From Dipteris shenzhenensis (taxonomy: Eukaryota), in assembly GCA_047967505.1 (NCBI GenBank), contig CM106538.1: a stretch of 64,000 bases of DNA; one strand, given 5' to 3'. This document shows, piece after piece, positions 7,785 to 61,259 of the stretch. How positions within the stretch are numbered: the stretch's first letter is position 1; each line of letters begins with the position of its first letter. The notes under the pieces are model-generated. The model worked only from the letters and a program-made list of their open reading frames with translations, searched no databases and was not told where the DNA came from. A program made the position numbers and the translations under genes.

Positions 7785-7869
7785 ATAGCATGGTAGTAGT
7801 GCAGGATTATCACAGATTAGTGGAGGAGTTACTATCGACATATAAGTTGCCAGAGTTAAGCAAGGAGTG

Positions 7870-10452: not shown

Positions 10453-10483
10453 TGCCTACCGTGTGTCTCTCTCATGGAGTTTC

Positions 10484-33008: not shown

Positions 33009-36000
33009 AATGCATCCACCAATGTGTCAAACATTTAGTGCAACTACTATCAGAAGTTTGGACACTATGAAAGAGATCACCGCAAGAAGCAGTACGACCA
33101 AGGTGGTCAATCCAGTAGCAATCAAGGGAATTCCTAAGGCAAAGGAAATCATCATGGCGGACATTCTAGTCACAGTCATTTTGTAAATGAACATGGAAAT
33201 ATGTTTCTTGCAAGCGAGAAATTGCATCAGATTGATACAGTGTATCTAGACACTGATTTCAATCCCAAAGAGGATTACAGCTATCAAGTCGACCAAGTGG
33301 TATAGGATCCTTGGTACATCGATAGCGGTGCATCATCTCACATGAGATATCATCAGGAATGGTTCATAGAAATGAAACCATTAGAAGGACAGAAAATTGT
33401 CATCTACACAGCAGACAATACACTAAATCCGGTACAAGGGACAGGTGCTATCCCTATGAACAATTTCACTGGTATGAAAGGATTGGTCAAAGATGTTCTC
33501 TATGTTCCGAAGCTCAGCAAAAACCTCTTGTTAGTAGGTCAAATGACTAAACACAATTACAAAGTCATCTTCGATGGTGATGAATGCACTATCAGAGACA
33601 AATCCAAAAGATGTCAGCTAGTAGCAAAAGGTGTCAAGGAAGGATGCTTATACAGAATGCTAGCTATAGTACTAAATAAGCATGCCATGTCAGCTCAACT
33701 GCAACAAATGCCACTATCTGCAAAATGGTACAAGAGATATGGTCATGTCAACTTCAAGTACTTGTTAGATCTCAGGAATCAGAATATGGCAATTGGGATT
33801 CTGAAGCTATAGTTTCTTGGAAAAGTTTGTGAAGCATGCTACTTCGGCAAACAAAAGCGAACCAACTTTGTCAGAAGTACCTCTCGTGCATGAGGTATTC
33901 TTGATTTGATACATACAGATGTATGGGGTTATGCCTAGACCCGCAACATCAATGGTTCACTTTACTACTTGACTTTCATCGACAACTACAATAGATATTG
34001 TTGGGTCTACTTTTTGAGAGAGAAATCTAAAGTGTTTTTTAGATTTCAAGAATTCAAAGCCATGGTAGAAAACTAGACAGGCAGAAAGATTAAGGTCATG
34101 AGATCAGATAGAGGAGGTGAATACATGTCTTCAGCATTCATGAACTTTTGCAAAAGTCACGGCAGTCGAAGACAATTCACATGTGCAGATACTCCTTCGC
34201 AGAATGCAAGAGCTGAAAGGAAGAATGGAACTTTAGTAGATAGTGCTAGAGAAATGCTTAGTGAAAAGCATCTTCCAAATCAGTATTGGGTAGAAGCAAT
34301 AGCTACAGCAAACTACTTGCTTAATCAGCTTCCTACCAAATGGATACAAGTTATGACTCCTTATAAAGCATTCAGTGGACACAAGCCACACATTGGGCAT
34401 CTCCGCATATTTGGTTGCATAGCATATGCCCACATACATGATGATCATCGTAGGAAATTGGATGTGAAGTCACGTAAATGCATCATGCTTGGCTACAGTG
34501 AAGAAAGCAAAGCATACAAATTTTATGATCGCATCAACCGCAAAATCATTATCTCCAAAGATGTAATCTTTGATGAGGAATCAGAATGGAAAACCTCACC
34601 TACACAGGAGATAGAGGCATTGACTTCACAGTCATCTACAGAATAGGTTGATGAAGAAGAGCAAGAATTGACAGCAACACCCCAAGCAGAGCCACATCAG
34701 CTCAGACGGTCTACTAGGGAAAGCAGACCTCCAGCCAGATTGACATATGCTCAGAAAGGCAAAGCAATTCAGGTGGAAACCACCAATTATGCTCTTATGA
34801 CTACCATCATGGCTACAGAAGAGCTAGTGTACTTCAAAGATGCAGTAGACAAGCCAGAATGGCAAATTGCTATGAATGAAGAAATGGATGCTTTGTATAA
34901 GAATAATACTTGGGAATTATGCGACCTTCCACTAGGAAAGAAGGCCATAGCAAACAAATGGGTATACAAAGTGAAGTACAATCCAGATGGCAGTATTCAA
35001 AGATATAAATCCAGATTAGTTGCAAAAGAATTTGCACAACAATATGGTTAGGACTATGATGAGACTTATGCTCCAGTAGCAAAGATGGATTCCATATGGT
35101 TCTTGATATCACTAGCGACACTCAGTAAATGGAATGTGTATCAGCTCGATGTCAAGAATGCATTTCTCAATGGTTATCTAGACGAGGAAGTCTACATGCA
35201 ATAACCAGCAGGTTATGTTGAACTAGGAAAGGAGAATAAGGTTTGCCATCTCAAGAAAAGTCACTATAGCTTAAAACAAGCACCCAGAAGTTGGTATAGC
35301 AGAATCAACAAGTATTTTGCTGATCTGGGATACATGAAGTCCAATGCAGATCATACTCTCTACTTCAAAGTTCAAGGAGAAGACATTACTATTGCACTTT
35401 TGTACGTAGATGATCTGATTGTGATAGGAAGTAAGGATAGCTTCATCAAAAAATTGAAACAAGAATTATTTGTAGAGTTTGACATGACAGATCTTGGACT
35501 TATGCACTATTAACTTGGAATTGAGTTCTGGAGAGATTCAAATAGCACATTCATGAGTCAGCTCAAGTATGTTGACAGTCTCCTGAAGAAGTTTCATATG
35601 GCAGATTGCAAGATTGCAGCCACTCCCATGGAACAGAGTTTGAAACTTACTAAAGATTCAAAAAAGCCTACATTCAATGACAGATACTACAAGTAGCTCA
35701 TCGGATCTCTTATATATCTAACATTCACACGGCTAGATATTTGTTACGCAGTAAGCTCACTAGCATAGTTTATGGCAAATCCAAAACAGTCTCACTGGAA
35801 TGCAGCCAAAAGAGCCTTGAGATACATCAGAGGTACAAGACAGTTTAGGATAGAATACAGAGGAAGTCATCCATGGTTGCATAGATACTGTGATAGTGAC
35901 TATGCTGGAGATCATGAGACCAGGAGATCGACACAGGGATATGCATTTTTCCTTAGTCAAGATGCTATATCATGGTTGTCAAAAACAAACAGCCAACTGT

Positions 36001-36316
36001 TTCTTTGTCTTCGACTGAAGAAAAATATAGAGAACTCACTACAGTTGCATGTGAGGCTATATGGCTCAGAAGACTATTGTCAAAAATAGATTACTTTGAT
36101 GAGTCTAAGCCAACAACAATATACTATGATAATCAATCGGCTCAAGCATTGGCCAAAAATCTAGTATATCACTCCAGGACAAGCACATTGATGTCAGAGA
36201 GCACTTCATCAGAGAAAGAGTGTTACTTGGCGACATCACACTGCAGCATTGTGATAGCAAAGAGAATGTTGCAGACATCTTTACCAAACCACTCGGTAAA
36301 GAGCTATTCGAGAAAC

Positions 36317-37012
36317 TGTTAGAATCCAAGAGCATGTGCCTAGCGTGCCCCCCGCCAAGACCGCTAGCACCTCATGGAAGTGCACAACCTTCATGGCCAC
36401 TATGGAGGCTCTGGCATGTGTGTATGGCAGGTCCCCACCCCTGCCATAAGGCACCCTTGCCTAGCCAGCCCTCCAACCTCCACAAAAGGCAAGCTTGGGG
36501 GAATTGAAGATAGGAGGGGCAACTTGGACTATTTATGTCCCTTCATCTTCCACACACCTTTGTATGTGGGATAATTCAACCCTTTCTCCTTCTTCTTATC
36601 CCCTTTGTCCATGAGAGATTTGCACCTCCAACACCCCCCTCCAATCGATCATGGAGAGAGGTGGCCGGGGATCAGACCCGGGGGCTCTGATACCATGTTA
36701 GAATCCAAGAGCATGTGCCTAGCGTGCCCCCCGCCAAGATCGCTAGCACCTCACGGAAGTGCACAACCTTCATCGCCACTACGGAGGCTCTGGCATGTGT
36801 GTATGGCAGGTCCCCACCCCTGCCATAAGGCACCCTTGCCTAGCCAGCCCTCCAACCTCCACAAAAGGCAAGCTTGGGGGAATTGAAGATAGGAGGGGCA
36901 ACTTGGACTATTTATGTCCCTTGATCTTCCACACACCTTTGTATGTGGGATAATTCAACCCTTTCTCCTTCTTCTTATCCCCTTTGTCCATGAGAGATTT
37001 GCACCTCCAACA
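36317..37012 (-). mobile_element. TRIM (terminal-repeat retrotransposon in miniature)
   Basis: Two 317-bp LTRs (36317-36633 and 36696-37012). The 62-bp interior holds little beyond the PBS (TGGTATCAGAGC, minus strand) and the PPT. TSD GAAAC. Confidence 0.95.
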
Positions 37013-37423
37013 GAAACACCGACTAGCTCTTGGTTTGATGCAGAGGAAGGACATTCTCATTAAAGGGGTGTGATGGAATGTAATGCTCAGTCCTTCTTTG
37101 ATTCCCCAGAATCATCATCTTGAGGGAAGACATACTTCATGATGTTGATCTTGAGAGAAGGTGTTGAGAGTTCACGCTCAACATCATGTGATCATGTGTG
37201 CATAGCACCATCATGTGATCATATGTGCATAGCACTAACCTTATAGAGTGCTATAAAGGAAAGGGTTAGATCCCCTAACCCTAACCCTAAAAGGGTTTGT
37301 ATATGTTCTATTTTTTCAACTAAATCTAGTGTACAATTAGTCATTTGTGGTGTACTCTCTAGCTGTGCCCTCTCTCCTCATCTCCACTCTTCTCCTCTCC
37401 CCTCTTCATATTTTGTCAAAGTC

Positions 37424-38826
37424 CTCATTTAAAGGAGCTTAATCAAAAGGCTATGGCACTATGTAGTCAGTTTGATTTTTGCAAGTTTGTTCATATAAAC
37501 AGATAATAAAATCAAAGGGCAGATGAGTTAGCTACTCAAGCCATTGTAGTACAAGACCAGGGGGTGGTTTCTTTAGTAGACACTGGATGACCATAACTGC
37601 AAGATGTTTAGCAATATGTGGAAGAAGGCATGTTTTGTCGAGGGTTAACTCCAAAACAGAAGCAAAGATTGGTGAGGAAAGCTTGTCCCTATACTATTGT
37701 TGATGACATTCTTTATAAATTGGGAAAAGATAAGGTGCTCTCTCAGGTGGTCCATCCCATGGAGACTAGGAGAATCCTAGAAATGTGTCATGAATGCTCT
37801 GGTCATTTTGCTTTAGCAAGCACAACTAGGAGAATTCTTAATGTAGGTTACTTTTGGCCATGCCTCCATATATGAATGGTGTCGAAGTTGTAAAGTATGC
37901 CAAAAGTTTGGAAGGCGACAATTGATTCCTGGGCCCTTGAAGCCTATTCCAGCCATAGACCACTTGAGAGGTGGGGGTTGGACTTTGTGGGACCACTCCC
38001 TCGCTCATCTCAGGGCAAGCATTATTTATTGGTGGCCACAAATTATGCGACTCGATGGGCAGAGGCCAAGGCCATAGTCAATAGTAAGGTAAGCACAGTT
38101 GCAAAATTTCTCTTTGATCAAATTTGTTCACGCTTTGGTTTTCCTTTGGAAATTCTCACTCATGGAGGAACCTCTTTTAGAAATGAACCAATTGAAGATG
38201 TGGTGCATAAGCTAAAGATAAATCATAGCATGTCCATGCCATACTATCCCCAATGTAATGGCTTGGCTGAGAAAACAAATGGATTGTTGTGCAATTCAAT
38301 GGGAAAGCTTGTAGCCACTAAGAAAAGGCATTGGGATAGGCACTTGGCAGAAGTTTTATGGGCTTACAGAACCACACACAAGCTAGCTATTAGGTTTACA
38401 CCATGCCAACTAGTGTATGGAATAGAAGCCATTTTGCCCATTGAATCGGAGATACATAGTCTTCGCACTGCTTTTGCAAGAAAAGAAGGACAGGAGGATG
38501 CCTATGCTCAATGCTTGGTACAACTAGAAGCCTTGGATGAATGCAGATTATAGGCCTTACAAAACTTGGAAGCTTCTCAAAAAAGGCGCAAGGCCTACTT
38601 TGACACCAAATTATGCAAGAAGAAAGATATTGTAGAAGGAGATTTGGTTATCAGATTTGATAGCTGTATAGACAAGCGGCTAGACAAAAAGTTTATCGAC
38701 CGATGGGAGGGACCATATGGAGTCAAAAAGAAGTTCACAAATGGAACCTATCCATTTGAGGATGTTGATGGCATGGTGATACTCGGGTGCACCAATGAGT
38801 ATCACCTTAAATTCTTCTATGCTTGA
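37424..38826 (+). pseudogene. Gypsy C aRH C-terminus and integrase
   Basis: CHECSGHF zinc-finger region, WGLDFVGPLP, YYPQCNGLAE and the WEGPY (GPY/F) motif. Confidence 0.9.
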
Positions 38827-39215
38827 CCACCTTGAGGGCCAGCAGACCCTCTTTATCACTAGAGAGGATCTGCTGGGGGGAGAAAGATGTGATGCCAAAA
38901 ATTGATATTTTTTATTTGGCATTGGTATTGTTTTCTTCTATGTTTGATAAGAGTTTGAGTATCAAGTGATAGCCTAGCGGCTCTCACTTATTTTTATTTT
39001 CTAAGATATTCTATGGAATTGAGAGGATGAGTGGAATGGATCATTGTAAAATACCATAGGTATGAATTATAAATACCTTGGTATGGGGTGAGAGTTATTT
39101 GTGTATGGGATATTATAGGGTTTTTAGAAAATAGGAAGAGTGAGTCACGTAAAGAGGTGGGCTCATGTCCATGTGCTCCAATAATATAATAGATGCCACA
39201 TGCCAAGCGTGTGGA

Positions 39216-42200
39216 TCTCTGTTTGATGTAGTGCAAGGCGTCGGGTCTCATCTAACTTCTCAAGTTGTACCAATCTGGCCTCTACATGTTCATCTTCTAT
39301 CATCCTTTGTTCCTGTGCCAATCTCAAGGCTGGAATCTCTATCTCTAGTGGTAAAACTGCCTCAGTACCATACACCAACTCAAAAGGGGTGTGACCTGTA
39401 GATGTTTTATGAGTGATGTTGTAAGCCCACACTACTTCAGTGACCTTCTGATCCCATTGGCTCCTATTCCCTGCGGCCATTTTTCCCATGGTTTTACAAA
39501 GGAGGCCATTGGTCCGCTCTGTTTGACCCATGGATGCTAGATAATAGATGCTAGAAGTGTGATGATCAATGCCCATGCGATCCATGAGTAACTCCACTGC
39601 TTCATTTAAGAATGGACTCCCATGGTCAGAGACTATCTCCATGGGTGTCCCAAACCTTGTGCAGATACGTTCAAAGATGAAATTTGAAACTACCTTGCCA
39701 TTTGCAGCAGAGAGGGCGATAGCTTCAGCCCACTTAGTGACATACTGAGTGGCTACCAAAAGATACTTCTTTTTGCAGGCAGTCATGGGCAAGGGCCCGA
39801 CAAAATCTATTCCCCACTTCTGAAACGGATGGATGGACATCACTGGGTGATGTTGCCCGGGACGCAAATCTTTCTTACCGAAGAATTGACATGGTTCACA
39901 GGTTTTGCAATACAAAGTGACATCCTTGAACAAGGTCGGCCAATAGTATCCAGCATGTAAAATCTTCTTAGCTGTATAGTCACTGGCATAGTGGCCTCCA
40001 CAAAATCCATCATGATAATGCTTCAATACCTTAGGCACTTCATCTGCATCAATGGCCCGTCTGAGTACCCCATCCATGCCTTGACGGTACAACACCCCAT
40101 CAAGGAGGGTGTAGCGTCTACTATCTCTGTGGATCTTCTTTCTCTCATAGCTTGTACTTCCTGAAGGAAAGGAGAAAGCGGCCAAAAACTTGTAGATACC
40201 ACCATACCAAGGATCCCCAACTTCTATGGCTGCTACAAGGGTTACATCAAGGCACTCCTCTAAATCAATCAAAGCATTCTTCAAGTTGGACTAACCCCCT
40301 TTTACAATTTTGAAAGAAAAATCATATTCTTGTAGAACTGCCAACCATTTGGCCAACCGGCCCATGGGATTTGGTGATTGAAGAACCTGCTTTGCAAGAC
40401 CAGTGCCAATTTGTATAAAGAAGGACTTTCCAGCCACATAATGCTTAAATTTCTCAATGCAAAACACCAAAGACAATGCATGCTTGTCAGCCTCTGAATA
40501 GCGTCACTCAGTGTCGAGCAATTGTCGAGAAGCAAATCGAACGGGGTACATGAACCGATCCTCCCCTTGCTGGAGAAGAATACCTGCCAGAGTGTGCTCT
40601 CCAAACCCAGGATTGATATAGAAGGTCTTTGACCAGTCTGGATTGCGTAGAATGGGTTCTGAAGCCAGAGCCTTCTTGATTTGTGCAAACCCATGATCAC
40701 AATCCTCATCCCAAGAGAAATCAACCCCATCTTTTAATAGCATAGTCATGGGCCATGTCAAAGTAGCATACTGATCAATGAAGCAGTGATAGTATCCTGC
40801 TAGATTGACAAATGAGCGTACCTGACGTTTGGTTGTAGGTGGGGAGAGTTTGAGGATGGCTTCTACCTTCTCAGGGTCACGGTTGATGCCCTCGGATGAG
40901 ACAACATGTCCCAATAACCTCCCTTGAGTGGCTCCAATGGTGCATTTCTCAGGGTTGAGACTGCCATTTGCATCATTGACCCTTTGGAAGGCCAATCTAA
41001 CCTTCATGATGTGCTCCTTACGTGATGAGAATATACAGAAATCATCTAAAAACACCTCCAAGAAATCCCCCAAATAAGGAGAAAACACCATCTGCATAAA
41101 TCTTTGAAAGGTGGCAGGAGCATTGGTGAGGCCAAATGGCATTACTTTGAATGCAAATGTCCCCCAGGGTGTGGCAAATGTGGTTTTAAGCACATCTTCC
41201 TCGGCAATTCTGATTTGATAAAACCCAGAGTAACCATCACAGAAAGTATACATCTCATGACCACTTACCTTCTCAAGAATGAGGTCTTGAAAGGGTAGAG
41301 GATGATGATCCCTCTTGGTGGCAGCATTGAGCTTCTTATAGTCGCGATGCAGACCCGCCACTTGTTGTTTTTCTTTGGGATGACTACCACTGGTGAAACC
41401 CATTCAGTATTGTGAACCGGAACAATAAACCCAGCCTCTATAAGCTTCTGCAACTCTGAGTGCAAAGCGTCGCTCTGTAGGGGCCCTAATCTTCGATACT
41501 TCTGAGCCACAGGCTTTGCATCAGGCTTCAGCTCTATCTTGTGCTCTATGGCAGTCACATGGCGAAGGTGGTGGTAGCTAGTTGCAAAGAGGTCAGGGAA
41601 ATCTTTGAACATTTCAAGAAACTCATCTTTCTCACCTGGAGTGAGGTCTGGAGAAAGCATTGATTCGAGCTGTTGAGGACTAGCTGTTATCTTTTTTGCA
41701 GGTGGCAGGGTCGGAGACACCCCCATCATGTAAATTTCCTCCTCTGAGAATTCGTCCCCCCCGTCTGATTTTTCCATGGACTCAGACACTGAAGATGAGA
41801 TAGTATCACTGTCATGCTTCTCTTCTTCTTCCAGTTCCATGGCACCAGGTTGCATAGGGATTTTCTCCTTGGAAGCACCAAAAGACATGTGTCCTGTCTT
41901 CCAATAGCTGACTGCATCACTTTTTCTCAACCATGGTCTCCCCAGTATGGCTGGGTAACTTCTGCCTGTATCTTCAATGTCCACTACATAGAAATTGATA
42001 GTGGTGGTCAACCCGTTGACAGTGATGGGCAAATCCTCAATGACTCCCATGGTGGCGAGTCGTCGACCATCTGCTACCTTGATTCGAGTGGAGGAACACC
42101 TTGTACATTTCAAATTCAATTTCTTCATGATGTGGGGCACCATGATATTACATGCAGCTCCCCCATCAACACACACATTTTTGACATGGCAATTATCTAT

Positions 42201-43586
42201 GATGACATCTACTGTGTGTGGGTGCCGATCAATTTCTTCAGAGATAGAAGATACCTCTCGTACCTTTCTCTTTTTCTTGCTCTTCCTTGTTGAGAGACCT
42301 TGCTGTATCTCACGTCTCACCTTAGGGCTTAATGCTATTAGTTGAGGGAGTGTGATGCTCAAAGACCGATGAGCAAGGTCCTGAACGACCGAATAGTCCT
42401 CTTGCCCTGAGCCGATGGGAAAATCCGAGGGTGACCACTTACTCCTGCGAGATCTTTTAGTCTTCTCTGTTGGTGGGTCTGCCATCTCAGCATCTGAGGG
42501 CTTTGAGAAGGACACCTTCTTCTTGGGGTGGCCCGTTCCACGGTTTGGAGAGGGGTCCGAGGTAGCACGAGTTCTTTTCCCGAGATCAAGGATCTCCACA
42601 TCAGAATCCTCAGTGCCCGACTCACTTAGAAGATTCACCCTTGGAATATTGGGGCATTCTGTGCGATAATGACCCTTCTGGTGGCACTCGTAGCATACAA
42701 CATTAGCACGATCTCTTGGAGGGCAGTTGGCTTGATTTCTGATGCCCACCATCTCAAGCCGAAGATCATTCAGGGCCTTGGCTAAGTCATTGACTCCAGG
42801 TTCGGTTGCAAGGGGGGCCTCTTTAGTTGGAGGGGCCATGGGAGTAGAGAGGAGGGGGGATCATGGGCGAGGCTGGGGAAATCTTCGAGGCGGAGGATGA
42901 GGATATCCACCTTGTTGAGGGTAAGCATCTAAGGGAGGACCATACATCTGAGGTGGAGGCGGTGGATACATCCTTGATGAGGGGTGGGGGTATGCCCCTG
43001 AGTTAGACCCCCCAGGTTGTTGTTGCAGGAATGGAGGGGGATGCGGAGGGACAATCGTCTTCTTTGAGGCGGGGTCAGACTGAACTTTATCAAACTTTTG
43101 AGCAATCTCATGTGCTAGCACCATAGTTTTAGGATTCTCCCATTTAAGCTTGAGGCGGAATTCATCACTCGCTCCTGCTACAAGGTAGCCCAGCACATGC
43201 TGAGTCATTCCAGCTTGAAACCCGGCATTGTCCTCCTGTGTGGCAATCAAACGGTCCAGGAGCACGGCCGCTCGATCCACATATCGACGCGCCATCTCAC
43301 CTTCTAACTGCTTCAAATTTGCCACCTGTAGGTACACATTCTCCGGCTCCTCTTCTTTGCCGAAATACTCAATCATTGCTGCTATCAACCTTGGCCAGCT
43401 TTGGCGAACATCTTCGGCTTGCTTCTCATACCACACTTGAGCCAAACCTTCTAGAAATGTGGGAAGAACCAATAGCCATCTATCTTCAGTAAGAAAGTTG
43501 AGAGAAACACAACGGCGCTTGAAAGCCACAAGATACTCATTTGGATTTTCTTCTACCCGTCCACAAAACACGAGAATGTCAGCCAT
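39216..43586 (-). pseudogene. gag-pol: Gypsy D gag-pol (gag-PR-RT-degenerate RH-INT), with few lesions
   Basis: ORFs 42861..43586, 41265..42839, 40504..41403, 40291..40476 and 39163..40284. Motifs CYECHQKGHYRTEC, VDGGAACN, FLDDF and WGIDFVGPLP. No aRH between RH and INT. Confidence 0.93.
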
Positions 43587-43801
43587 GCTTGGAAGATGGA
43601 AAAGAGGGGCTTATCTATGGACGAACAATAGTAAGAGGAAGCTTGAACTGAAAATCGGGTGAAGATACATCCAAAAAGCACACATAGGCAGGGTAGGGTG
43701 TGACTGGTGTAGTGTGAAATATTACACGAGAAGAATCTTCAGCATAGAATAGCACATAGACAATCTTAAAAGGACCAACCCTCATGATATCACATCGATC
43801 A

Positions 43802-43966
43802 TTACAAGCGAGGGTTAGAGGCACAGCGTTGCATGAGGTTGTTCATCAAGGCAAACAAGAATACCATGACAAATGTCAACAGTTGGAGAGCTTGCACATC
43901 ACCTTCAGCTTCTTCCAGTTCTTGTAGTCGCCATGCTGTTTCTTCAAGGGGTGTGCGGTCTGGCAT
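43802..43966 (-). CDS. 54-aa micro-ORF upstream of gag, homolog of 19111-19260
   Basis: MPDRTPLEETAWRLQELEEAEGDVQALQLLTFVMVFLFALMNNLMQRCASNPRL*. Confidence 0.75.
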   Translation of the reverse strand: MPDRTPLEETAWRLQELEEAEGDVQALQLLTFVMVFLFALMNNLMQRCASNPRL

Positions 43967-44079
43967 TCTTCTTTTGAGCAATGTCCTTGAGAACCCTCCT
44001 GATGATCTGCCGAAGTCGGTAAACTCATATCAAGTATGCCCAACACTTAGTTTCATGATGACCACAACCTCTGCATTCC

Positions 44080-44544
44080 TTACAAATGATCACCCTCCTT
44101 CGTGGCTTGCGGCTTTGTTGGGGTGGCGCTTCCACTCGCGTCATGCGTGATTGGAGTACAAGCTTCACGTGCCAAGAAATCAGCAACTAGATTTTGAGCT
44201 CGAGGGATATGCTGAATTTTTACCTCTTCAAATTGGTTGCAAAGTTCCAAGGCTTGTTGATGTCGTGGAACCAAGCCTTTGCTCCGCACCTTCCACCTTC
44301 CACTAACTTGTTCACATACTAGTTGAGAATCTCCTTGCACCTCCAATTGCTTGGCATGATGTTCTTGTGCCTTTTGTAGCCCAAAGATGAGCGCCGAGTA
44401 CTCAGCTTGATTGCAAGTACTTGCGGGTGAAGACTTGCTGTAACAATACTCCTCACCACCCGGTGAAGTGAGCTTCACACCCATGCCAGCCGCCTTGGTC
44501 GAAGGTTTGTAAGCTCCATCAAATTGAAGAATCCAAGATGTCAT
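44080..44544 (-). CDS. Free-standing archaeal-type RNase HI (aRH)
   Basis: MTSWILQFDGA...CNQAEY...VQGDSQLV...HIPRAQNLVADFLA, with all four acidic catalytic positions present. A CCHC knuckle follows in another frame (44090-44025). Confidence 0.9.
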   Translation of the reverse strand: MTSWILQFDGAYKPSTKAAGMGVKLTSPGGEEYCYSKSSPASTCNQAEYSALIFGLQKAQEHHAKQLEVQGDSQLVCEQVSGRWKVRSKGLVPRHQQALELCNQFEEVKIQHIPRAQNLVADFLAREACTPITHDASGSATPTKPQATKEGDHL

Positions 44545-45383
44545 CACACCAAAACTAAAATTCGGACATCCCAAGTTTCTCGGTAGTCCAAGATAGGTAG
44601 GAGGAGAGGGTGGGGAGAATTCAACACTTGAGCCAAACGTTCAGCACCAAATAAACTTGCAATCCTTTGTTGATAGTTTATCTTAAGACCAAAAAGAATT
44701 ACAATTTGAAGCTCGAAATGAGGCACAAAAGGCTGATTAGGTATAAATGGATTCCTTGGTCAAAACATTACCAACCATAGTCGAGGCCTAGAAACCTTTG
44801 TAATGAGATTGTGAATAAACCATTCAGGATGAGCTTTTCCACAGGAATCAACAAGCAGATGCGCCAAATCTCCCCCCAAGCTTGGGGAGCATCCCACCCT
44901 TCGATGAAGGATACCGTTTTAATTATATCTGAAGTAGCAAGTAGTTCGATCACCGCACAATGAGTAGAAGTAAGTAAAAATCCTCCCAGCGTATCAGTAG
45001 TTCGTCACCATGAATCATCCATGGTGTATCATTCCACCCATCATCACCATCAATAATGCACTGGACAATCAGCCGTTGAAGGTCGACATGAAGATCAAGG
45101 AAGACATCTCGTGCATTGGTAGCCGTAAGGTGCAGAGGAACAGGCACCAATTCCTTAAACGCGTCGAGAAGTGACATAAATGTCCACCCTTCTTGTGAGG
45201 CGTGTGTCCATGAAGTGAGCTTGGAGAAGTTCTGAATTGGCAATCTAGCAAGAGATGTGGATAGAGCACATAAAATGAAATATTTTTGCTTTTTACAACA
45301 AGAGCAAACTCCTTACGGTTAGAGAGTTACAGCTCCCGTGATTTCAATATATGAACAAAAATCATTACATTTTTACCACTTCC

Positions 45384-45454
45384 AACTTGTTGGCCCAATG
45401 ATAAGACTTCCTTTTGTGAAGGGGGAGGTCTTGGATTCCAATCCTACTCTTTAA
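45384..45454 (+). other. tRNA-like sequence (SINE head or tRNA pseudogene)
   Basis: A-box-like TGGCCCAATG, stem TCCTT/GGGGG around the 7-nt loop TTGTGAA, variable loop AGGTC and B-box-like GGATTCCAATCC, all at canonical spacing. No acceptor stem. Confidence 0.4.
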
Positions 45455-45766
45455 TAAAAAGAGAAAGAGAAAGAGAAGGAGAAGAAGAAGAAGAGAAGAG
45501 ATAGGGGGGGGCGCGGGATCTGTTGTTACTCTTTTGCAGAGGCTCAGAAAACAATAAACTGTCCTCAACCCGAAGTCATAGCAGTCCAGAGAACTGGAGC
45601 GCAGAAAACTGTCCGCAACCAGAAGTTGCAACAGTCCAGAGAACTGTCGCGCAGGAGACGCACGAATCGAATGCATGCACAGTAGCTTAGAAAGAGCACA
45701 GATGGTATAGTTTTGTTGATGTAACCCGTACGAATAGAAGATTCGCCACCAGCCATGGAGATTCGC

Positions 45767-45784
45767 ATCCCAGCAGCCACACCA
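45767..45784 (-). promoter_or_regulatory. Primer-binding site of gypsy D, tRNA-His-like
   Basis: The plus strand reads atcccagcagccacacca, matching the plant tRNA-His 3' end plus CCA as I recall it. Confidence 0.7.
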
Positions 45785-46778
45785 AAACTTTTAGCCGGAA
45801 AATTTATCGAGACCAGAGGCTAGAGGCTAAATATGGCGACGCTCAAAGGCCATAGAGAAAAGGAGATCATGAGGGCGAAGGGATGCCATAGGGGTGAAAA
45901 AGGAATTAGAAGTGGAGGGAAGGAAAAGGGAGACTATGACACAAGGGGAAAGGGAGAGGGGGAAGAGAAGCATGTACATGATAGGAGGAGGAATGTGGAG
46001 ATGTAGACATCAAGGGAAGAGAATCATACTTTATTTGAAAGAAAGGATGAGAGGGAAATATCAAAATACTAGCTAGGTGGCTTTACAAGAATGAGCGTGT
46101 CTCATCAAGGAATAGCCCCTTCCTTTTATAGCCAAAAGAGGGGGTCTCTCCACATTAATGTATCCTCCCACATGCATGGTGTGTGTGGAAAAGTCTCCCA
46201 TGTGGGCTAGGTGGGTACGCACTCTCAATTGTGTGCGACAACCCTTTGCCTCAATTTTCCACATAAATCAAGCCCCATATCTCAAGTCTATGATACTCCC
46301 TTGGTCTCTTTCCAATTTTATAATATGTTCAAACCTCTAGGAGGACAAGTGGAGGGTTGGCACAAGGAATCTTGCCACCTCATCCTACTTTCCCCATTAT
46401 TTAACTAGCTCTCTTGGTCCTTCTATACCTCCCCCACATGGGCCTATCCCATATGGAGGGAATACCTCAATATAATATCTATCTCCACCTATTTTATATT
46501 GCTTCTCCCATGGACTTTGAGCCATATCTCACTAAATGTAGCCTAGGTGGAGGGGTGGCACATGGAGGAGCATGCCACCTTGCATTTTATATTATTACTA
46601 TTATGGATTATGTACAACACACCTTATGGGTCCTCTTACATGGAAGGGTGGCACATGGTCATGCCATGCCACCTCAACCTTGGGCCCTATGCACACCATA
46701 TTTTATTATACTATTGCCACATATACAAACACACATACATATTAATGCCTTTTTCCTTAGACAATTTTATCCATAACA

Positions 46779-49700
46779 GTAGTTATTTCTCAGCTTCCTA
46801 GTGCAGTGCAGCATCGTGTCTACATGCTCGATGCTCTCCTTTCTTCTATTCTTAGCTCTCCTCAAAAGACTATAGAAGATGTTTGTACCTGGTTAAGCCC
46901 TTTGAATTTAGATAGGGTGCGAGTCATATTAATGCCTTATCATGAGGTGTAAGTATCAACTCTAACCTTATTTTTACTATTTCTTTGGCAAGTTTGTGTA
47001 AAACAATAATCGTTTTTATTTTGGTCGTGTAGCTCACATTGGAGTCTGATCTTTTGGGACCTTGAACTCAACCGTTTATGGTTTGTGAATTCAATAGAAG
47101 GCTATCATGCCAACTCCCCAAGGTAATTATTCTCTTGATATTTTTGATACTTTCTTATTTTGTATCTTATGATCATGACATGTTAATATATTTAATATGT
47201 CATGATGGACAGTGCTGCATATCAGCTAGTATCTGCTATCAAAACAACCATGGAGCAACAAGATCAAGTAGAATTCAAAAGACATCTGCCAGTGGAGCAA
47301 AAAGATGGACACAGATGTGGGTGGAGAGTTGCCTACAACTGCATGTTTCTTAGAGAGATTTTTGATTTGGAGTTACCAATCAAAATGGAATCATATACAA
47401 AAGCCGATCTGCTAGCATTTCGGGCTGAGAGTATTCAGCATCTAATTACTACCATTGGGAAACAATCTGAAAATATGACTACATTGCAGCATGTATAAAA
47501 CCTTATCTTTATACTTGTATGCTTGTTCAAGCCTTTAATTGGGATGTGTAAATCTCATAACTTTTTTTTTATATTTTCCTCCAAGAGGAGAAGAGACTGA
47601 GTCTAATGAAAGCATGCTATTTTTATACTTCTATGATTATTTAAACCATTATTTTTATTTGGGATGTGTAAATCTCATAACTTTTTAAATTTTTCCTCCA
47701 AAACGAGGAGAGACTCACTCTAATGAAAGCATGTATGAAACCTTTTTAAATTTTTGCTCCAAGCGGAGGAGAGACTCACTCTAATGAAAGCATGTATGAA
47801 ACCTTATCTGCTTGTTTAAGCCTTTATTTGGGATGTGTACATCGCATAACTTTTTTATATTTTTACGGCAGAAGGAGGATGTGGAGGACATAGCAAGTGA
47901 AGAAGAATACGATGTAGACTACTCTCTCAATAATATGAGTCATGAAAATATTAATCTATTGGAGCAAATTGGAAGTTCATTCACTGCTATGTTGTTAATT
48001 CGACAACAACCTCATTTTTTTGAATTTGGTGAAGAAGAGATTTCAATCCTCTTGAATCCTAAGAAAGAGGTTAATGTCAAAGTCATTACAACCATCCTCA
48101 GGTTTGATGTAGCCTTTTCCTTGGCTTTATACTTTGCTTATTTTGATTAAACCCAAGAAGCTAATACTTTTTTTTTTAAATATAGTAATGTTATAGCAAA
48201 TTTTCCGCAAAATATACCAAGCGTTTCATATATGCTCGATCCTCGTATTTCGGAAGTGCTTAGCAACAAAGAAGAAACCATAGAGGATGTTTGCAAGTGG
48301 TTGAAGCATGTTCCTATGACTGATGCACGAGTTATTTTTACAGCATATTATGAGAAGTAAGCATCAAACCCTACTTGTTTTTTCTATTGCATTGCTAGAA
48401 TTGTCTCAAACACAGTAATTATTCTTTATTGATAATGCAGCTCACATTGGAGTCTGGTAGTCGTGGACATCCTTACGAAGAAGTGCTTCTTTGCCAACTC
48501 AATGACATCCATTCATGGCAATGTGTTAGAGTAAGTATAGACTACACTTATTGTCACTTCTTGACATGTAGATTGATATGCAATGCACATATTCACCGTT
48601 GTTATATGTTTTGATGTGTAGATCAGCTCAAAAGTTAGTAGGTGCTATCGACATAGTAATGCGGCAATGTGACTTGGCACAACAAATATAGTATATAACA
48701 TGTCAGGTATCACATCAAGAGAATAGCCACATCTATAATTGTGGATGGAGGGTGGGCTACAATTGCTTTTTGGTACTTGGTCAAATTTTTGAGATACAAA
48801 ATGACACCACACTGTCAACATATACGGATTTGCATCTCTATGCATTTATAACATGTACCATTCGAGCAATCATTGATTGTGAAATGAATGCCATCAAAGA
48901 GTCAAAGAGGATAGAAGACCTCAACTCTACAAACCTCCTACAAACATGGCTTCATTGGAAGAATTGGGAAGCTCTTTTAATGTTAGGGTTATGATTCAAC
49001 ATAGACCTCAGTATCTTGAATTTGGGGGAGAGGAGATTTCAATTCTTTCTAAAGCTTTAAATGAGGTCAATAACAATGTTATGATGGCCATTATCAGGTT
49101 TGATACAAACTTTTTCTCCACTTGATAATTCAATATTTTGATTAAATCTTATAAGCTAATATTCATTTATTTGTTGGTGTAGTATAGTTATCTCATGATT
49201 TGGTAGAGCCGTACAAAACCGTGTGTATGTGTTGGATTCCCTCCTTTCTCCTATACTTAGCGATAGCAGAAAGACAATAGCCGATGTTTGTAAATTTTTA
49301 TAGCCTTTACATTTACATGGCGTGCGAGTCCTATTTATGGCATATCACGAGATGTATCATGGCAACCTTTATTTTCATCTTATACTGGCAACATTGTGTT
49401 AAATAATAATGGTTCTTAATTATTCGTGTAGGGAACATTGGAGTTTGGTGGTTTGGGACCTTGAAGACAACTATTGTTGGTTTGTTAACTCGATTGCAGG
49501 CTTTCATGGCTCAGTGCAAACGTAAGTATTCTATTAATCTGTTGTTACTTCTATATTATGTACCTTATGTAATAGACATACTAAGTTTTTTCAAAACGTC
49601 ATGATGAGCAGGTCGATTGAGAAGTTGGTATCTGCTATCAGAGAAATAGGACAGTAGAAAGACTCGGTAGACTTCCAAAAGCATTTAGTAGTAGAGCAGG

Positions 49701-49910
49701 AAGATGGGCATAATTGTGGGTGGAGAGTTGCCTACAACTACATGTTGATTTTCAAAGAAATTTTCTCACTTAAGCCACAGATCTCATCGGAAGACTCTTT
49801 GGAGCTCAAATATTCAGAGGAGGATATACAATTGTTTAGGGCTGAAATCATTCGAGACCTAGTTGCTGCCATTAGAATACAACGTGCAATTGAAGCAATA
49901 TCAGAGCTTG
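46779..49910 (+). pseudogene. Intron-containing Ulp1/C48-like cysteine peptidase region with three tandem domain copies, probably transposon-borne
   Basis: HWSL exons follow AG acceptors at ~47035, ~48443 and ~49435. EQKDGHRCGWRVAYN at ~47295 and EQEDGHNCGWRVAYN at ~49694. The GT-AG layout repeats, and stops are present. Confidence 0.7.
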
Positions 49911-50190
49911 CATTTAAGGAAGAGGAGACTGAGTCTACTATGAAAGCACTGCACACTACAGAAGAAGTAGAGACCCAGTGTACACCTACAGCACCACAGC
50001 CTCCACTGGAAGCATCAGAAGAGTTGCCACAGCCTCCGCTTGCATTTAAGGAAGAGGATACTGAGTCTACTCTGAAAGCACTACATACTACAGAGAAGAA
50101 GTAGAGACTGAGTGTACATCTAGAGCACCACAGCCTCCATTGGAAGCATCAGAAGAGTTGCCACAGTCTCTATTAGAAGCATCGGAAGAG
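49909..50190. repeat. ~130-bp tandem duplication in an acidic coding-like tail
   Basis: tgcatttaaggaagagga...gcatcagaagagttgccacag occurs twice. Confidence 0.8.
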
Positions 50191-50279
50191 TGATGTTGTG
50201 TTTGTAGTTTTTGTTGATTATACACCAATTTGTGACTTATTACTTAAGTGGCATTTACTGATGATATTTACAAAATTAT

Positions 50280-50709
50280 TTCATGCACACAATTTTATGA
50301 TATGAATGTGTGATGATGTGATTATTTGGAAATAAATCCTTGTGTGATGAGAATTTTGATATGAATATGTGATGATGTAATATTTGTAATATATTTCTTC
50401 ATGCACACAATTTTATGATATGAATGTGTGATGATGTGATTATTTGGAAATAAATCCTTGTGTGATGAGAATTTTGATATGAATATGTGATGATGTAATA
50501 TTTGTAATATATTTCTTCATGCACACAATTTTATGATACGAATGTGTGATGATGTGATTATTTGGAAATAAATCCTTGTGTGATGAGAATTTTGATATGA
50601 ATATGTGATGATGTAATATTTGTAATATATTTCTTCATGCACACAATTTTATGATATGAATGTGTGATGATGTGATTATTTGGAAATAAATCCGTGTGAT
50701 GAGAATTTT
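50280..50709. repeat. 118-bp tandem repeat, about 3.6 nearly identical copies
   Basis: Unit starts (tcatgcacacaattttatgata) at 50281, 50399, 50517 and 50635. Confidence 0.95.
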
Positions 50710-52439: not shown

Positions 52440-54443
52440 TAAATTTTATAGGATGAGACTCATGTATCACAAAAACTAGATAAATAAACTATCCCTTATC
52501 TAGAATGAACATTTGTCATATTCATTATAATAATCTTTTCCTTGTTGCAAGCCTATTCCATTGCACATTGCATCTTGATTCCCACAATGTAAACATTATG
52601 TATTTCTTGTGAACATCAAATAACTTGAGTTTATGTATCATAAGACATGGATATCCTAGAACAACAGTATAGGTTTCCAATATCCAAGCATTTCTACACA
52701 TAATACATGAGCTTATTGATTGCATTTTTTATAAGAACCAATCTCTCATAAACTCACTAAGAAATAAATAAAACTATTTTGGCAACCAAGTAGAAGGGAA
52801 AAATAAAACTATTTTGGCAACCAAATAGAAGGATTTATTTTAAATATTGAATCAATTCACTAGCTCGGAGCTCCGTATGAAGTATTGAAACTTTTTAGTT
52901 CTCCAGCTTGGTGATCTTGTATACTTATGTTCTTTAAAGTATTGAAAAAGTTTGAAATGGAAAAAAACAATCAAATATTAAGACCACCCAATAGAAAAAA
53001 TGTCCCTAAGTGAAATATCCTATTGTTATCCTCTTTTAGGCTATGTATAGCTTCTATATGAGACTTTAAGGTCCCTCATGGTAGTTCCTCTTTTTTGTGT
53101 CATTACTTGCATGATACTTGGAAATGCTTATGCAAATAAACTAATATCCCTAGATTGATCAAACCAATATCCTACATGAATGTTTGAAGTCTTTAACATA
53201 ACATTTGAAGTCCCACATACAAGAACTTTAGGACTCCCATATAGGGGTTGATCAATATTCCACATGAAACATTTGAAGTCCTAAACATGATATTTAAAGT
53301 CCCACATACGAGTTTAGAAGCCCACCATGGAAGTGAATCAACATCTCGCATGGAATATTTGATTTTTGAAATGGGATATTTAAAGTCCCTTGTAGGAGTT
53401 TGGTGGTCCCTTATGGAATTTGAAGTCTCCCATGGGAGTTTTAAGGTTCCTTATGGGATTTAAAGTCCTTTGTCAGAATTTTCTAGCCTGTTATGGGATT
53501 CGAAGTACCACATTGGAGTTTTAAGGGTCTCTTGTAGGCTTTGATCCATGTCTCACAAGGGAATTTAAGCCACATTTAGGAGTTTAGGATCCCTTATAGG
53601 ATTCAAAATCCCACATAGGAGTTTTGGAGTCCCTATTGAGATTTTATCCATGTCCCATAAGGGATTTGAATGCCATATAGGAGTTCAGGGTCCTTAAGGT
53701 ATCAGATCCATGTACGACAAGGGATTTGTAAAGTCCCATGTGCAAGATAGCAAGTTTTTATGTAAATTTCTTTGACATGATATGAAATTACATTTCTAAA
53801 GAATTAATTTGAGATTTATGAACTTAAATAGTATGTAAGAGTTTTTTTTAATAAAAACCATGTAGAAAAAACCTGGGTTATAGTAGCATCTTAAGTCCAT
53901 TTGATATGATGCTATTGCACAATAGCTCTAATGATACTAGCAACATTGATGCAATAAAGGAAGCTATACAGAGATGACGGATTTCTAAAAATTTTGTTGT
54001 GGTGAGAACTATGTTGCGATCAATGAGCATGTGTGTCAGTCCACATCATCATGTCCCACTTGTCAATTTGATTCTAGTGATGCTACGATTGATTAAAGAA
54101 TGGAGGACTACATTTATAGAAAATATATTTGGTTATGAAAACATATGTATTTGATTCTATTATTGCAAGGTACAAGGTGACACCCACATTGTCCAAAATT
54201 GCCACCAATGGTTAAGGTTCTTACAAATTATCGATGCTTTTTTTTACTCTTTTTTTTCCAGATGCAATATCGACTCTAATATCAACATTTGCTAGAGTAT
54301 TATTAATGCCCATACTGATGGTAATATATACCATAATAATATGGATGAATGTAACTATTGCATTAATGTCGATGATATGGTCTTGAGAAAAAACCTGAAG
54401 AAAAAGCATTCATAGGAAACATTGATATTGGTGTCCACGATAG

Positions 54444-54497
<54 letters not shown>

Positions 54498-55051
54498 CTT
54501 CAATTGTTATACGAGGAATCTCTTGGTCATAAATTAACCATTATAAGAAAAGAAAAGAAGAAAGCCACTTATTGACAAATGAAATAGACAATGTCCAAGA
54601 TGAGATGCTTTCTATTGTAGCTATTTCAAGATGATATGATTATTAACAATATAAATCAAGAGATTCGACATTTGGTATAAAAGAATTTTATTATGTTTGT
54701 TAATTTCACAATACTATTAAATAATGTGCAATTTTTTAATTCCAATTATGTTCATAGTATGGACATCAAGTTGTTTGTGATAAAAGATGGGGAAATCAAT
54801 TATTGGGAAGGGAGCCATACCAGAGAACATTTTAAGGGCAGGCTACAAGAGTAGGTAGGGCCTTTGTTACATGTTTAACTATCATCAAAAGTTGGAGAAA
54901 CTCTTCAGTAGCTAAGATATAAGAAATTTTGGGTGGAGGATGGTCCACCTAATAGGAGACAATGAGCAAGGGAGTTAATTGGATGGCTAGACAATCTAAT
55001 GGCCCATGTGATGCCTTCCAAAGAGGAACTAATAATTAGCTAGCATGTTTA
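52440..55051. repeat. ~2.6-kb segmental duplication, copy 1
   Basis: Nearly identical to 59181-61813. Paired ORFs in the track: 52525/59258, 53248/59993 and 54221/60967. Confidence 0.97.
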
Positions 55052-56740
55052 TGTGAAGATAGTGGGAGAGAGGGAAGGAGTCTCACTTGAGGCTTTCTCA
55101 CAAGCACAATGGGGGAATACACACAAAGGTGGAGGCTGAAAACAGTTTTCCTCTTCTTAGTTGTGAAAGCCAAAAGAACTCAAGTACAAAGAAATAGAAG
55201 AACCGTATATGTGGGTCTCAAACCAAACTCAACTAACTAAGGTGGCATACCAACTGAGCCACGAACTAGTGTAGATAAGGATAGCTATCATCCAGCTATT
55301 ATTCGTGGGCGGTGTACCAACCGCATCTCCAGCTAACAAGTCAGTGACATAAATACACAATGGTCACCCTGGCATATCGCAAGTGGAGCTCGATATCTCA
55401 ACACTCCCCCTCGAGCTCAATCCCAATTCCTGCACACCAAGCAGGTCTCTAAACTTGCGCAGCTTCTCTGCGCCCAATGCCTTCGTGAATATGTCAGCTA
55501 CCTGATCCTCTGTGCTGACATAAACTAGATCAATAAGACCTAGTAGAACCTTCTCCCACACATAGTGATAATGCACCTCAATGTGCTTTGTTCTAGCATG
55601 AAAGACTGGGTTCTTTGCCAAGTGTATGCTGCTCATGTTGTCACAATAAATGACAACTGGCCCATCTGTAGACTGATGCATATCATAGAGTAGCTTATGC
55701 AACCAAGCTACCTCACATGCAGCCATTGCTGCACCCCTGTACTCAGCCTTTGTGCTCGACAAGGCAACTGTAGGCTGTTTCTTACTGCTCCAAGTGACTG
55801 TAGCACTCCCAAAAGAGAACACATATCCACTGGTAGATTGTCTATCAGAAATACTACCAGCCCAATCAGCATCAGTGTATCCATGCAACTGTATCTGAAC
55901 CCCAGCCTCATAAAATAGTCCATACTGCAATGTGGACTTCACATACCTGAGTATGCATCTAGCCGCATCCAAATGCAGTTTCCTTGGAGCCTGCATAAAC
56001 TGACTTACCAACCCAACAGCATAGCTCAAATCTGGCCTGGTAATAGTCATGTAAATCAAACTTCCTACAGCATGTCCAGTCCATACTGCCTCTGCAAGAG
56101 CTATATCCCACTTGGTGATCTAATCACCTCAATGCCCAAGAAATAACGCAGCTCTCCCAAATCCTTTATCTCAAACTTCTGCCTCAATAGCATTTTCACA
56201 TGAAGGATATCTTCATCACTATTACCTGTGATGATCAAATCATCAACATAAATGACAAGCAGCATAATCCCTTTCTCTGTTTTTCTCACATAGAGTGAGA
56301 AATCTGCCTTGGAAATCTGAAAGCCAATAGTGACAAGATACTGTCCTATCTTGTCAGACCATGCTCTAGGTGCTTGCTTCAAGCCATACAAGGCTTTCTT
56401 TAACCTGCAAACAAACTCAGGATGAATAGCATGAATATAACCTACTGGCTGCTCCATAAAGACCTCTTCTTGCAAATCACCATGCAAGAAGGCATTCTTT
56501 ACATCCATTTGATGTAAATACCATCCCTTTGATGCGGCCATAGCAATGCCTGCTCTTACGGTTGCCATCCTTGCAACCGGGCTGAAAGTTTCTTCATAAT
56601 TAATGCCATATGTCTGTGCATACCCCTTGACAACTAATCTTGCCTTGTATCTATTCACAGAACCATCTGCATTGTGCTTGATCTTATAAACCCACTTACA
56701 GCCAATTGCATTCTTGTCTTTAGGCAAAGGCACCAATTCC
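55052..56740 (-). mobile_element. Ty1/copia G (family of F): 3' LTR plus RT-RNase H only
   Basis: LTR 55052-55403 is the reverse complement of the F LTR, with the PPT adjacent. ORFs 56101..56742 and 55364..56059, with a small deletion near 56068. Confidence 0.93.
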
Positions 56741-57309
56741 ACTCTATTTGCTCCATACTCAAAGTGAATATGTCATCCACTAGAAGAAGAGGATCACCAA
56801 AACATCTGTCATATTTGCCTTCATGTGTATGAGGTTTCTTTCGACCAACACACAACTCTTCCATTGGAATATTTTCAAGCATTAGAGGTGCAAGTCAATG
56901 TAGTCAATAGGTCAGGTAGGATTTTTATCTAGGGGGATAGGAACTCGAGCAAATTGCCTTAGTTGTTCCACATTCACCCCTTCAGGTACTCAGTGGCATC
57001 TTTCTCCATCAGAAGCATGGCACTCTTCTTGTTTGTTGATTCTTTGGCCATCTGCAGTGGCTACTCTTCTTCAGTCATACCTTTCTCGATGACTAGATTC
57101 TTCGTGAAAATCAGTTGAGAATTAAAGTAGTCTTTCTCTTTGTTGATTGGTGTGGTCCTCATGTTCATTTGGATGATCCAAAGAGGAAATGGCCAACCAT
57201 TTGAAATCCAAACCCTTTATAGAAGAATGCTCAGACTCCACTTGCCATGAGAGTCATGGCGAACTTCAGACAAGATAGCCAAGCAAGTGCTTCAGATACC
57301 GTATCTTCT

Positions 57310-57520
57310 CTCCTCACAGTTGGATTATTGTGGAACCACACACGAAATCTATGAAGTTGATTTCAGACGATTTAGTATTTTCATTCTTGATGTAAAATGG
57401 TTTAGAACTATTTACAACGGTCCCCATGCAACAGTGAGAAAAGACAGCAGCGATTTCTTTGCAATAGACTCCACCAAACTTTGGACCGATGAAAGTGATA
57501 CTTTTAATTTGTTCTTCCCG
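57310..57520 (+). pseudogene. CACTA/En-Spm transposase C-terminal (DUF4216-like) fragment
   Basis: DYCGTTHEIYEVDFRRFSIFILDVKWF...DSSDFFAIDSTKLW resembles the YG.I.EI.ELD...KWF pattern. Confidence 0.6.
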
Positions 57521-57522
57521 AG

Positions 57523-57692
57523 AACTAAGGTGGCATACTAACTGAGCCACAAACTAGAGTAGATAAGGATAGCTGTCATCCAGCTATTATTCGTGGGCGG
57601 TGTACCAACCGCATCTCCAGCTTAACAAGTCGGTGACATAAATACACAACGGTCACCCTGGCATATCGCGAGTGGAGCTCGATATCTCAACA
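57523..57692 (-). mobile_element. Partial LTR of the F/G copia family
   Basis: Matches 55235-55403 and ends ...gatatctcaaca. Confidence 0.9.
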
Positions 57693-58339: not shown

Positions 58340-58567
58340 AATGTCGCTATAAAAAACTATCTCAGTGTCGCTATATAACGACCATTACCAATCTGATAAA
58401 AGTCGCTATATAGCAACTTTAGGCAAATGTCGCTATATAGTGACATTTTACTAAAGTTGCTATATAGTGAGTCTTAACAAACCCCACTTCCAATACTGAC
58501 GATTAGCGCCCCGCGCATGCTAAATGTCGATACTTAAGCATCGCAATAGGATCCGTGTGTAGTAGTG
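58340..58567. mobile_element. CACTA element terminus with subterminal repeats
   Basis: Ends gtagtagtg (reverse complement CACTACTAC). It is preceded by about 5 copies of gtcgctata. Confidence 0.75.

Positions 58568-61199: not shown

Positions 61200-61259
<60 letters not shown>

Follow-up and report, generated by a model that had tools for sequence, protein, structure and literature searches.

Within a 64,000-nucleotide stretch of contig CM106538.1 from Dipteris shenzhenensis (GCA_047967505.1; hereafter the window), we found a Ty3/gypsy long terminal repeat (LTR) retrotransposon, element D, which is very probably a degenerate, 3′-truncated copy of the Tat lineage with the published structure #4, or 'pre-capsid', layout, its additional RNase H (aRH) being encoded by an open reading frame (ORF) of its own upstream of gag. 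In retroviruses and, independently, in the Tat elements of plants, an added RNase H took the place of the native enzyme, and layouts that place the added enzyme in its own cistron raise the question of how a free RNase H reaches the reverse-transcription complex. The window adds one more family with the pre-gag aRH layout; it brings no new architecture, and the copy of D that it holds is dead. The window also contains element C, on the plus strand, which is an element of structure #1 (the 'retroviral' layout) and serves below as the comparison.

A standalone RNase H upstream of gag

The upstream ORF starts with an ATG at 44544–44542 and ends with a TAA at 44082–44080, within a stop-to-stop frame of 44640–44080, on the minus strand like all element D coordinates given here. 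Pfam assigned it to RVT_3 (PF13456, E=1.2e-26) and RNase_H (PF00075, E=3.8e-8), and its DEDD core is complete (D9, E48, D72 and D122), with these four residues invariant in all 49 sequences of the alignment that we built. A PDB sequence search returned six distinct entries at E≤0.001, all of them archaeal-kind type-1 RNase H (the Rv2228c N-domain, Halobacterium RNase H1, Sulfolobus tokodaii RNase HI and LC11). Structurally, an AlphaFold2 model derived from the 49-sequence alignment (mean predicted local distance difference test score 88.4, predicted template-modelling score 0.81) superposed on Halobacterium RNase H1 (4e19) with a target-normalised template-modelling score (TM) of 0.89–0.90 and a root-mean-square deviation of 1.4–1.8 Å at 36% identity, and also on S. 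tokodaii RNase HI, the best fold matches, with target-normalised TM of 0.82–0.90, being the proteins that the PDB sequence search had found. By this model, the upstream ORF of D has an archaeal-type RNase H1 fold with an intact DEDD core, and enzymatic activity is predicted. The cellular archaeal-type enzymes (4e19; S. tokodaii 2ehg/3aly; Rv2228c N-domain 3hst; LC11 3u3g) have both the fold and the DEDD core in common with the aRH of D, at 30–36% identity and target-normalised TM 0.76–0.90; unlike them, the aRH of D is encoded as a cistron of a retrotransposon and ends in a disordered tail of 21 residues.

Positionally, the aRH ATG lies 958 nt upstream of the first gag methionine (43586) and in another frame (958 mod 3 = 1), and the aRH is therefore a separate cistron that gives no read-through product. 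The initial annotation, made from the letters of the window, had described an intact aRH as a separate ORF with its own ATG about 1 kb before gag, and the four catalytic residues and the 958-nt distance bear this out; the interval it gave, 44025..44544, is right at the ATG (44544), and its left limit runs 55 nt beyond the stop (44080).

Disorder is predicted for the C-terminal tail of the aRH (residues 134–154; 44083–44145, minus strand), which varies more than the domain does. As a side observation, this tail ends in D/N-H-L in all four complete aligned family sequences (D, P0001, P0002 and P0008), and the final residue is invariant in 15 of 15 full-length sequences; this conserved end might serve as a short motif for docking or processing. 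We also observed that the aRH frame stays open for about 32 codons 5′ of the ATG (44545–44640, minus strand).

A degenerate native RNase H and no aRH in pol

Pfam placed the aRH, gag, protease (PR), reverse transcriptase (RT), RT_RNaseH_2 and integrase (INT) matches of D all on the minus strand, with the order gag-PR-RT-RNase H-INT over 43586–39216. We then compared the window by tblastn with five related polyproteins, four of structure #1 (P0066, P0068, P0093 and P0074) and one without an aRH (P0088). None of the structure #1 queries, four in all, found its aRH block at the junction of the native RNase H domain (gRH) and INT of D; in each case the block mapped to 44607–44107 instead. For P0066, residues 700–1056 aligned to the RT-gRH of D (41343–40261) and residues 1222–1556 to its integrase (40263–39229), with residues 1083–1214 falling on the pre-gag ORF (44538–44149). 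The aRH-less P0088 aligned continuously from RT to integrase (41346–39220), with no domain-sized gap between gRH and INT. The two domains of D are contiguous at 40261/40263, and no remnant of an excised aRH was seen at their junction.

Functionally, the native RNase H of D reads FYINPGFG where P0088 has FHVTLDASG, and QIGTGL where P0088 has HTDHNSL, so that the first Asp and the third catalytic residue have both become G; a degenerate RNase H with FYINPG that runs straight into the integrase, as the initial annotation had it, is thus what we found. Judged from these substitutions, the native RNase H of D is catalytically dead. Because it is dead and the pol of D carries no aRH, D would need an external RNase H.

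Organization of element D

The features of element D, from the 5′ side of the element onwards, are as follows.

46123–46130, minus strand: TATAAAAG box (TATA box), within the presumed 5′ LTR of D
45760–45784, minus strand: candidate primer-binding site (PBS), starting with TGG and resembling the complement of a tRNA 3′ end; the sole match to the pattern in the window
44545–45759, minus strand: leader from the candidate PBS to the aRH ATG, 1215 nt with 23 ATGs
44080–44544, minus strand: standalone aRH ORF, 154 codons and a TAA stop, archaeal-type RNase H1
43587–44079, minus strand: 493-nt spacer from the aRH stop to the gag ATG; all frames are interrupted by stops, and 16 ATGs are present
42861–43586, minus strand: gag, capsid part, beginning with the first Met and closed by the in-frame stop 42863–42861
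41346–42860, minus strand: CCHC knuckle of the nucleocapsid, then aspartic protease and the first part of RT, in the gag frame, with a frameshift near 41345
40294–41345, minus strand: RT (FLDD motif) and native gRH; RVT_1 at 1e-23 and RT_RNaseH_2 at 8.8e-13
39216–40290, minus strand: integrase with H2C2 zinc finger and DDE core, directly after gRH and cut at 39215/39216

The gag methionine at 43586 lies in a strong context, with A at −3 and G at +4, and the Retrotrans_gag match of the D gag (E=3.2e-4) is under Pfam's cut-off. The ORFs at 42861..43610 and 41265..42860 are contiguous and in one frame, and since the CCHC knuckle, the protease and the start of RT continue downstream in the gag frame, the stop at 42863–42861 is a premature nonsense codon. 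Two more in-frame stops lie in the RT-gRH segment (40506–40504 and 40293–40291). With one frameshift, three in-frame stops, an integrase cut at 39215 and no 3′ LTR, this copy of D is dead and 3′-truncated and cannot transpose. Its G+C content is 0.48 in the aRH, 0.50 in gag and 0.46 in pol.

At its 3′ side, the integrase cut adjoins a 328-bp stub of the 3′ LTR of element C (38888–39215, 95% identical to 17065–17392). An insertion of C into the integrase of D, with D resuming to the left of 17065, was considered and rejected, as the flanks form no target-site duplication (TSD) and no integrase C-terminus was present there; the 39215/39216 junction looks more like a deletion breakpoint than a site where C entered D. 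The C LTR stub is preceded by a polypurine tract (about 38875–38887), and the D integrase is opposite in strand to C.

At its 5′ side, repeat searches over 33–50 kb and a self-BLAST of the whole window found no partner repeat for the region upstream of D and hence no LTR pair, and in the window D does not show the combination of paired LTRs, polypurine tract and TSD. The missing LTR pair reflects the truncation of this copy and not a property of its family. The tRNA consensus that we take to underlie the PBS at 45784–45760 is presumptive, and this PBS stays a candidate, with no second LTR fixing the boundary. The methionine-tRNA PBS motif was tried for D as well and gave four exact matches, all of them in nested copia-type elements. 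Scans for tRNA genes and Rfam families gave no match in the 64-kb window, and a Pfam search of 10 neighbouring ORFs, among them the 120-aa and 141-aa ORFs in the D leader, found no families.

The upstream ORF as a multi-copy family

A search for near-length proteins with the aRH of D, in which 58 candidates were scored, recovered 42 at E≤1e-5. Nine of these 42 were 73–85% identical to the D ORF, and the next best reached at most 44%, mostly over short alignments. The two main homologue clusters held 25 and 8 members; among the 23 cluster members listed, 14 were exactly 154 aa long, all of them distinct and 83.1–86.4% identical to D. Across the resulting 15 sequences (these 14 and D), invariant columns made up 100 of 129 in the domain and 10 of 25 in the tail (Fisher p=4e-4). 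Such conservation of domain over tail is, at the level of these sequences, the pattern expected of a protein that would have been kept by selection as the family spread. One homologue, P0009, carries a predicted 74-residue N-terminal extension that runs through the leader and matches the translation of the D leader, of which the last ~220 nt are conserved; as this extension reads the same leader as D, the leader is therefore conserved between copies. The contig of another family member, P0327, is 8,128 nt long. A search of the representative library with the aRH gave its top scores to host-like proteins in which RNase H is repeated two or three times and which are uninformative on element context; a SAP domain was present in 5 of the 23 matches scanned and a transposable-element pol fragment in one. 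The conserved 154-codon ORF is usable for tests of expression, activity and interaction.

Phylogenetic placement of elements C and D

Evolutionarily, a quick IQ-TREE analysis of the RT-gRH region, covering 85 of 114 rows (of 120 listed matches, eight with short alignments were left out, as were 29 outgroup-like rows), united D, C and every protein with an aRH after gRH in one clade (SH-aLRT, the Shimodaira–Hasegawa-like approximate likelihood-ratio test, 99), for which the name Tat rests on domain content, the rows being free of curated Tat, Athila or REXdb references. Within this clade, D was sister to the rest (94) and C branched next (93); the C and D rows are long-branched, and their order is accordingly not secure. 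The aRH-less liverwort-type proteins, including those of Marchantia and Riccia, fell outside the aRH-bearing clade. The nearest named RT relatives of D were proteins of the fern Adiantum nelumboides, at ~42–50% identity, and an atlas search with the RT of D yielded Streptophyta only.

Between elements C and D, 49% of amino acids are identical over 249 RT-gRH columns, 67% of nucleotides over the sole alignable 498 bp, and 36% of residues over the 99 aligned in their aRHs. By these identities they are old, separate lineages, and they therefore record no recent relocation. In an approximately unbiased (AU) test on the aRH tree, which comprised 46 rows, a single clade of all element-borne aRHs was not rejected (log-likelihood difference 1.10, p=0.43), so relocation and recapture of the domain are indistinguishable. 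The initial annotation had looked to separate RT and aRH phylogenies of C and D for a domain relocation or a second acquisition: the RT tree places D as sister to C and the structure #1 proteins, the aRH tree is undecided (AU p=0.43) and cannot choose between the two events, and the ancient divergence of C and D leaves no recent event for them to capture.

Relationship to published Tat structures

The sections of the earlier literature drawn on here describe aRH at fewer positions than are now published. Neumann et al. 2019 (PMC6317226) give three, between PROT and RT, after INT, and between RH and INT, and in Ustyantsev et al. 2015 (PMC4408406) the positions described in the portion consulted are all within pol. 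Biryukov and Ustyantsev 2023, Genome Biol Evol (PMC10508981), in the parts used here, define five Tat structures, of which #4 has the aRH upstream of gag. Tat aRH positions thus follow five published structures and not the three of the 2019 classification; the background given in the initial annotation fits the three-position scheme of PMC6317226 and predates in substance the five structures of PMC10508981. Its suggestion that a pre-gag aRH might be an undescribed architecture falls, as the layout is already on record as structure #4 and as 'pre-capsid' in the consulted sections of PMC10508981 and PMC13468544. A full-text literature search for an additional ribonuclease H upstream of gag returned PMC10508981 as its sole match.

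According to the same sections of PMC10508981, structure #4 occurs in Pleurozium schreberi, Calohypnum plumiforme, Ceratodon purpureus and Syntrichia caninervis (Tat B) and in Selaginella tamariscina (Tat C), with Cpur_2, Cplu_2, Psch_2 and Scan_2 as representatives from the mosses and Stam_3 from S. tamariscina. Prokopeva et al. 2026 (PMC13468544) name this layout 'pre-capsid' and, in the part consulted, cite the 2023 paper together with Wang et al. 2021 for its discovery. Section 2.4 of PMC13468544 calls the moss Tat B elements 'post-integrase', and Table S2 of PMC10508981 gives all moss elements as structure #4; the two papers appear to be inconsistent on this point.

Like D, structure #4 elements have a separate pre-gag aRH, a degenerate native RNase H and no aRH in pol. 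In S. tamariscina, structure #4 shares the genome with structure #1 (70.8% and 20.8%, respectively, in the portion of PMC10508981 used), as D does with C. D differs from the published structure #4 copies in being broken and without a 3′ LTR, and in having proteins of a fern, A. nelumboides, as the nearest named relatives of its RT. The nine fern assemblies in the 2023 survey, as far as the consulted sections report, held structure #1 only (PMC10508981).

The two other layouts that bear on D are structures #1 and #3. Structure #1 (the 'retroviral' dual RNase H layout; Ogre/Retand in angiosperms and Tat D in ferns) is represented here by C, P0066, P0068 and P0093. It is like D in its RT clade, in the degeneration of the native RNase H and in having an added RNase H of the RVT_3 type; its aRH is fused in pol between gRH and INT and acts in cis, whereas D encodes its aRH in a separate cistron upstream. 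Structure #3 ('post-integrase'; conifers, Cycas and Ginkgo) has its aRH outside the main pol array and reportedly in a separate ORF, as in D, and by the account in the parts of PMC10508981 consulted it raises the same question about activity in trans; in structure #3 the aRH is placed 3′ of the integrase, whereas in D it is placed 5′ of gag. The native RNase H is described there as degraded in all aRH-bearing Tat structures, whereas the aRH-less Tat Z keeps an intact one (PMC10508981). In the same sections, the aRH phylogeny is unresolved, with which the aRH tree obtained here, itself without resolution, agrees; the authors favour one acquisition followed by recombination between elements, and they treat the way in which an aRH works from a separate ORF as an open question (PMC10508981).

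Proposed function and alternative explanations

For functional members of the family of D, the likely layout is (LTR-PBS)-aRH ORF-gag-PR-RT-degenerate gRH-INT. In the best-supported reading, the native RNase H, with its catalytic carboxylates lost, would survive only as a connection or tether domain, and the 154-aa aRH, made from the separate ORF that precedes gag on the genomic RNA, would supply RNase H in trans. In intact members, the upstream aRH would then be the only active RNase H for reverse transcription, serving template degradation, generation of the polypurine-tract primer and primer removal. Action in trans would take place in the particle, where the enzyme could be recruited through RT/gRH, Gag or the RNA:DNA hybrid, and gag-pol could be translated behind the aRH cistron by splicing, reinitiation or internal entry.

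Several observations weigh against reading D as a structure #4 element that works in this way. A second copy in which the aRH ORF is joined to gag or pol of the D type was not recovered in these protein searches: the search with the D gag for longer proteins found none among 1,943 candidates, no pol protein of at least 525 aa was above 61% identity to D, and a gag domain was present in 0 of the 23 top representative-library aRH matches scanned. With no LTR pair in the window and the PBS a candidate, placement of the aRH inside an LTR-bounded unit is putative. The assignment to structure #4 is set by layout, the RT tree being without the Tat A–L references that bear on cluster B or C. In the aRH tree, the D family falls among free-standing RNases H, apart from C and the in-pol Tat aRHs, at weak support values (87 in the tree used for the AU test and 82–89 in another). 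The 16 ATGs of the pre-gag spacer speak against simple reinitiation, though this copy is decayed. Finally, we know of no demonstration that a separately encoded RNase H acts in trans in a retroelement particle.

Given the absence of an LTR pair for D and of a database copy joining the ORF to gag, one may suspect a chimera, in which an aRH and leader from another repeat, or from a host RNase H pseudogene, came to lie, in this copy only, beside a 5′-truncated D gag-pol without an aRH; the surroundings have been extensively rearranged, with nested insertions and the C LTR stub adjoining the D integrase at 39215, and the close homologues of the ORF lie mostly on short contigs of 0.6–1.8 kb. We hold this to be very unlikely, since aRH and gag share strand and the right order across a 493-nt spacer in which no LTR, PBS or TSD signature was found, and since G+C content is similar across aRH, gag and pol. 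Moreover, the ORF is multi-copy and conserved like a transposable-element gene, a dead native RNase H together with a pol free of aRH departs from the intact enzyme that aRH-less Tat Z keeps, and the exact layout is documented in five species in the consulted parts of PMC10508981.

The structure #4 layout could also have arisen in the D lineage by an independent second capture, with the RNase H taken from a host or prokaryote-like gene and not from a structure #1 aRH. The position of the D family among free-standing RNases H in the aRH trees points this way, as does the aRH identity between D and C, which is no closer than that of D to free-standing homologues (41–50%). We regard this origin as unlikely: the AU test does not reject a single clade of element-borne aRHs, the domain is short (~130 aa) with long branches, the 2023 authors favour one acquisition with recombination in the sections used (PMC10508981), and the RT tree sets D directly beside the structure #1 clade as its sister, which fits a rearrangement within one lineage. 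A recent relocation in this genome, by which D would descend from a C-like element whose aRH moved from pol to the 5′ leader, would account for the presence of both layouts in one 64-kb window and in one RT clade; it is extremely improbable in view of the low identities between C and D in RT-gRH, nucleotides and aRH, the branching of D outside C and all structure #1 proteins, and the clean gRH/INT junction.

With D read as a structure #4 copy, it is possible, if rather doubtful, that it extends this structure beyond mosses and S. tamariscina to a plant group with no recorded instance of the layout and, in a bolder form of the same proposal, that the aRH was captured independently and the 'pre-capsid' layout is convergent. 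The extension of range is conceivable because the nearest named RT relatives of D are from a fern and the ferns of the 2023 survey yielded structure #1.

Element C and other repeats in the window

Element C runs on the plus strand from a 5′ LTR at 17065, through gag from ~19824 and then PR, RT and gRH, to an integrase that ends at 38826 and is followed by the polypurine tract and the LTR stub. Its aRH, which the initial annotation had correctly located in pol between RNase H and INT, is arranged as follows.

23673–23940, resuming at 37424–37557, plus strand: aRH of element C, between gRH and INT, the second part with two in-frame stops

The interruption is a nested copia-type element at 23941–37418 (plus strand) with a 5-bp TSD, AAGTC. 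Its 255-bp LTRs (23943–24197 and 37164–37418) are 96% identical, and a PBS of the Met-tRNA type follows at 24198. Further copia sequence is nested inside 23941–37418, with LTRs of its own of ~350 bp (27475–27824 and 32651–33008, 94%). In addition, C carries ~700 bp between RT and gRH (22577–23274, plus strand) for which the related polyproteins have no counterpart; this insert includes an exact TGGTATCAGAGC at 22756 and may be the remnant of another small LTR element.

Elsewhere, 2762–14962 consists of two ~7.5-kb units at 84–90% identity, with a ~720-bp repeat present three times (3117–3817, 7064–7785 and 10484–11211), and looks like tandem LTR elements with a common LTR. Beyond D, repeated segments at ~70–76% identity occupy 46799–50170 (plus strand) and include three ORFs (47196–47498, 48692–48994 and 49658–50104) with a ...GH(x)CGWRVAYN... 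motif, none of which has a Pfam match. A tandem array of a 118-bp unit follows at 50264–50709, with copies 95–99% identical. Two 2.6-kb direct repeats (52459–55051 and 59192–61813, 97% identical) surround ~4 kb that holds copia-type RT/RNase H ORFs on the minus strand (55364–56772), and this pair is probably another LTR element; parts of the 52459–61813 unit are inverted copies of the nested copia sequence at 31184–33008.

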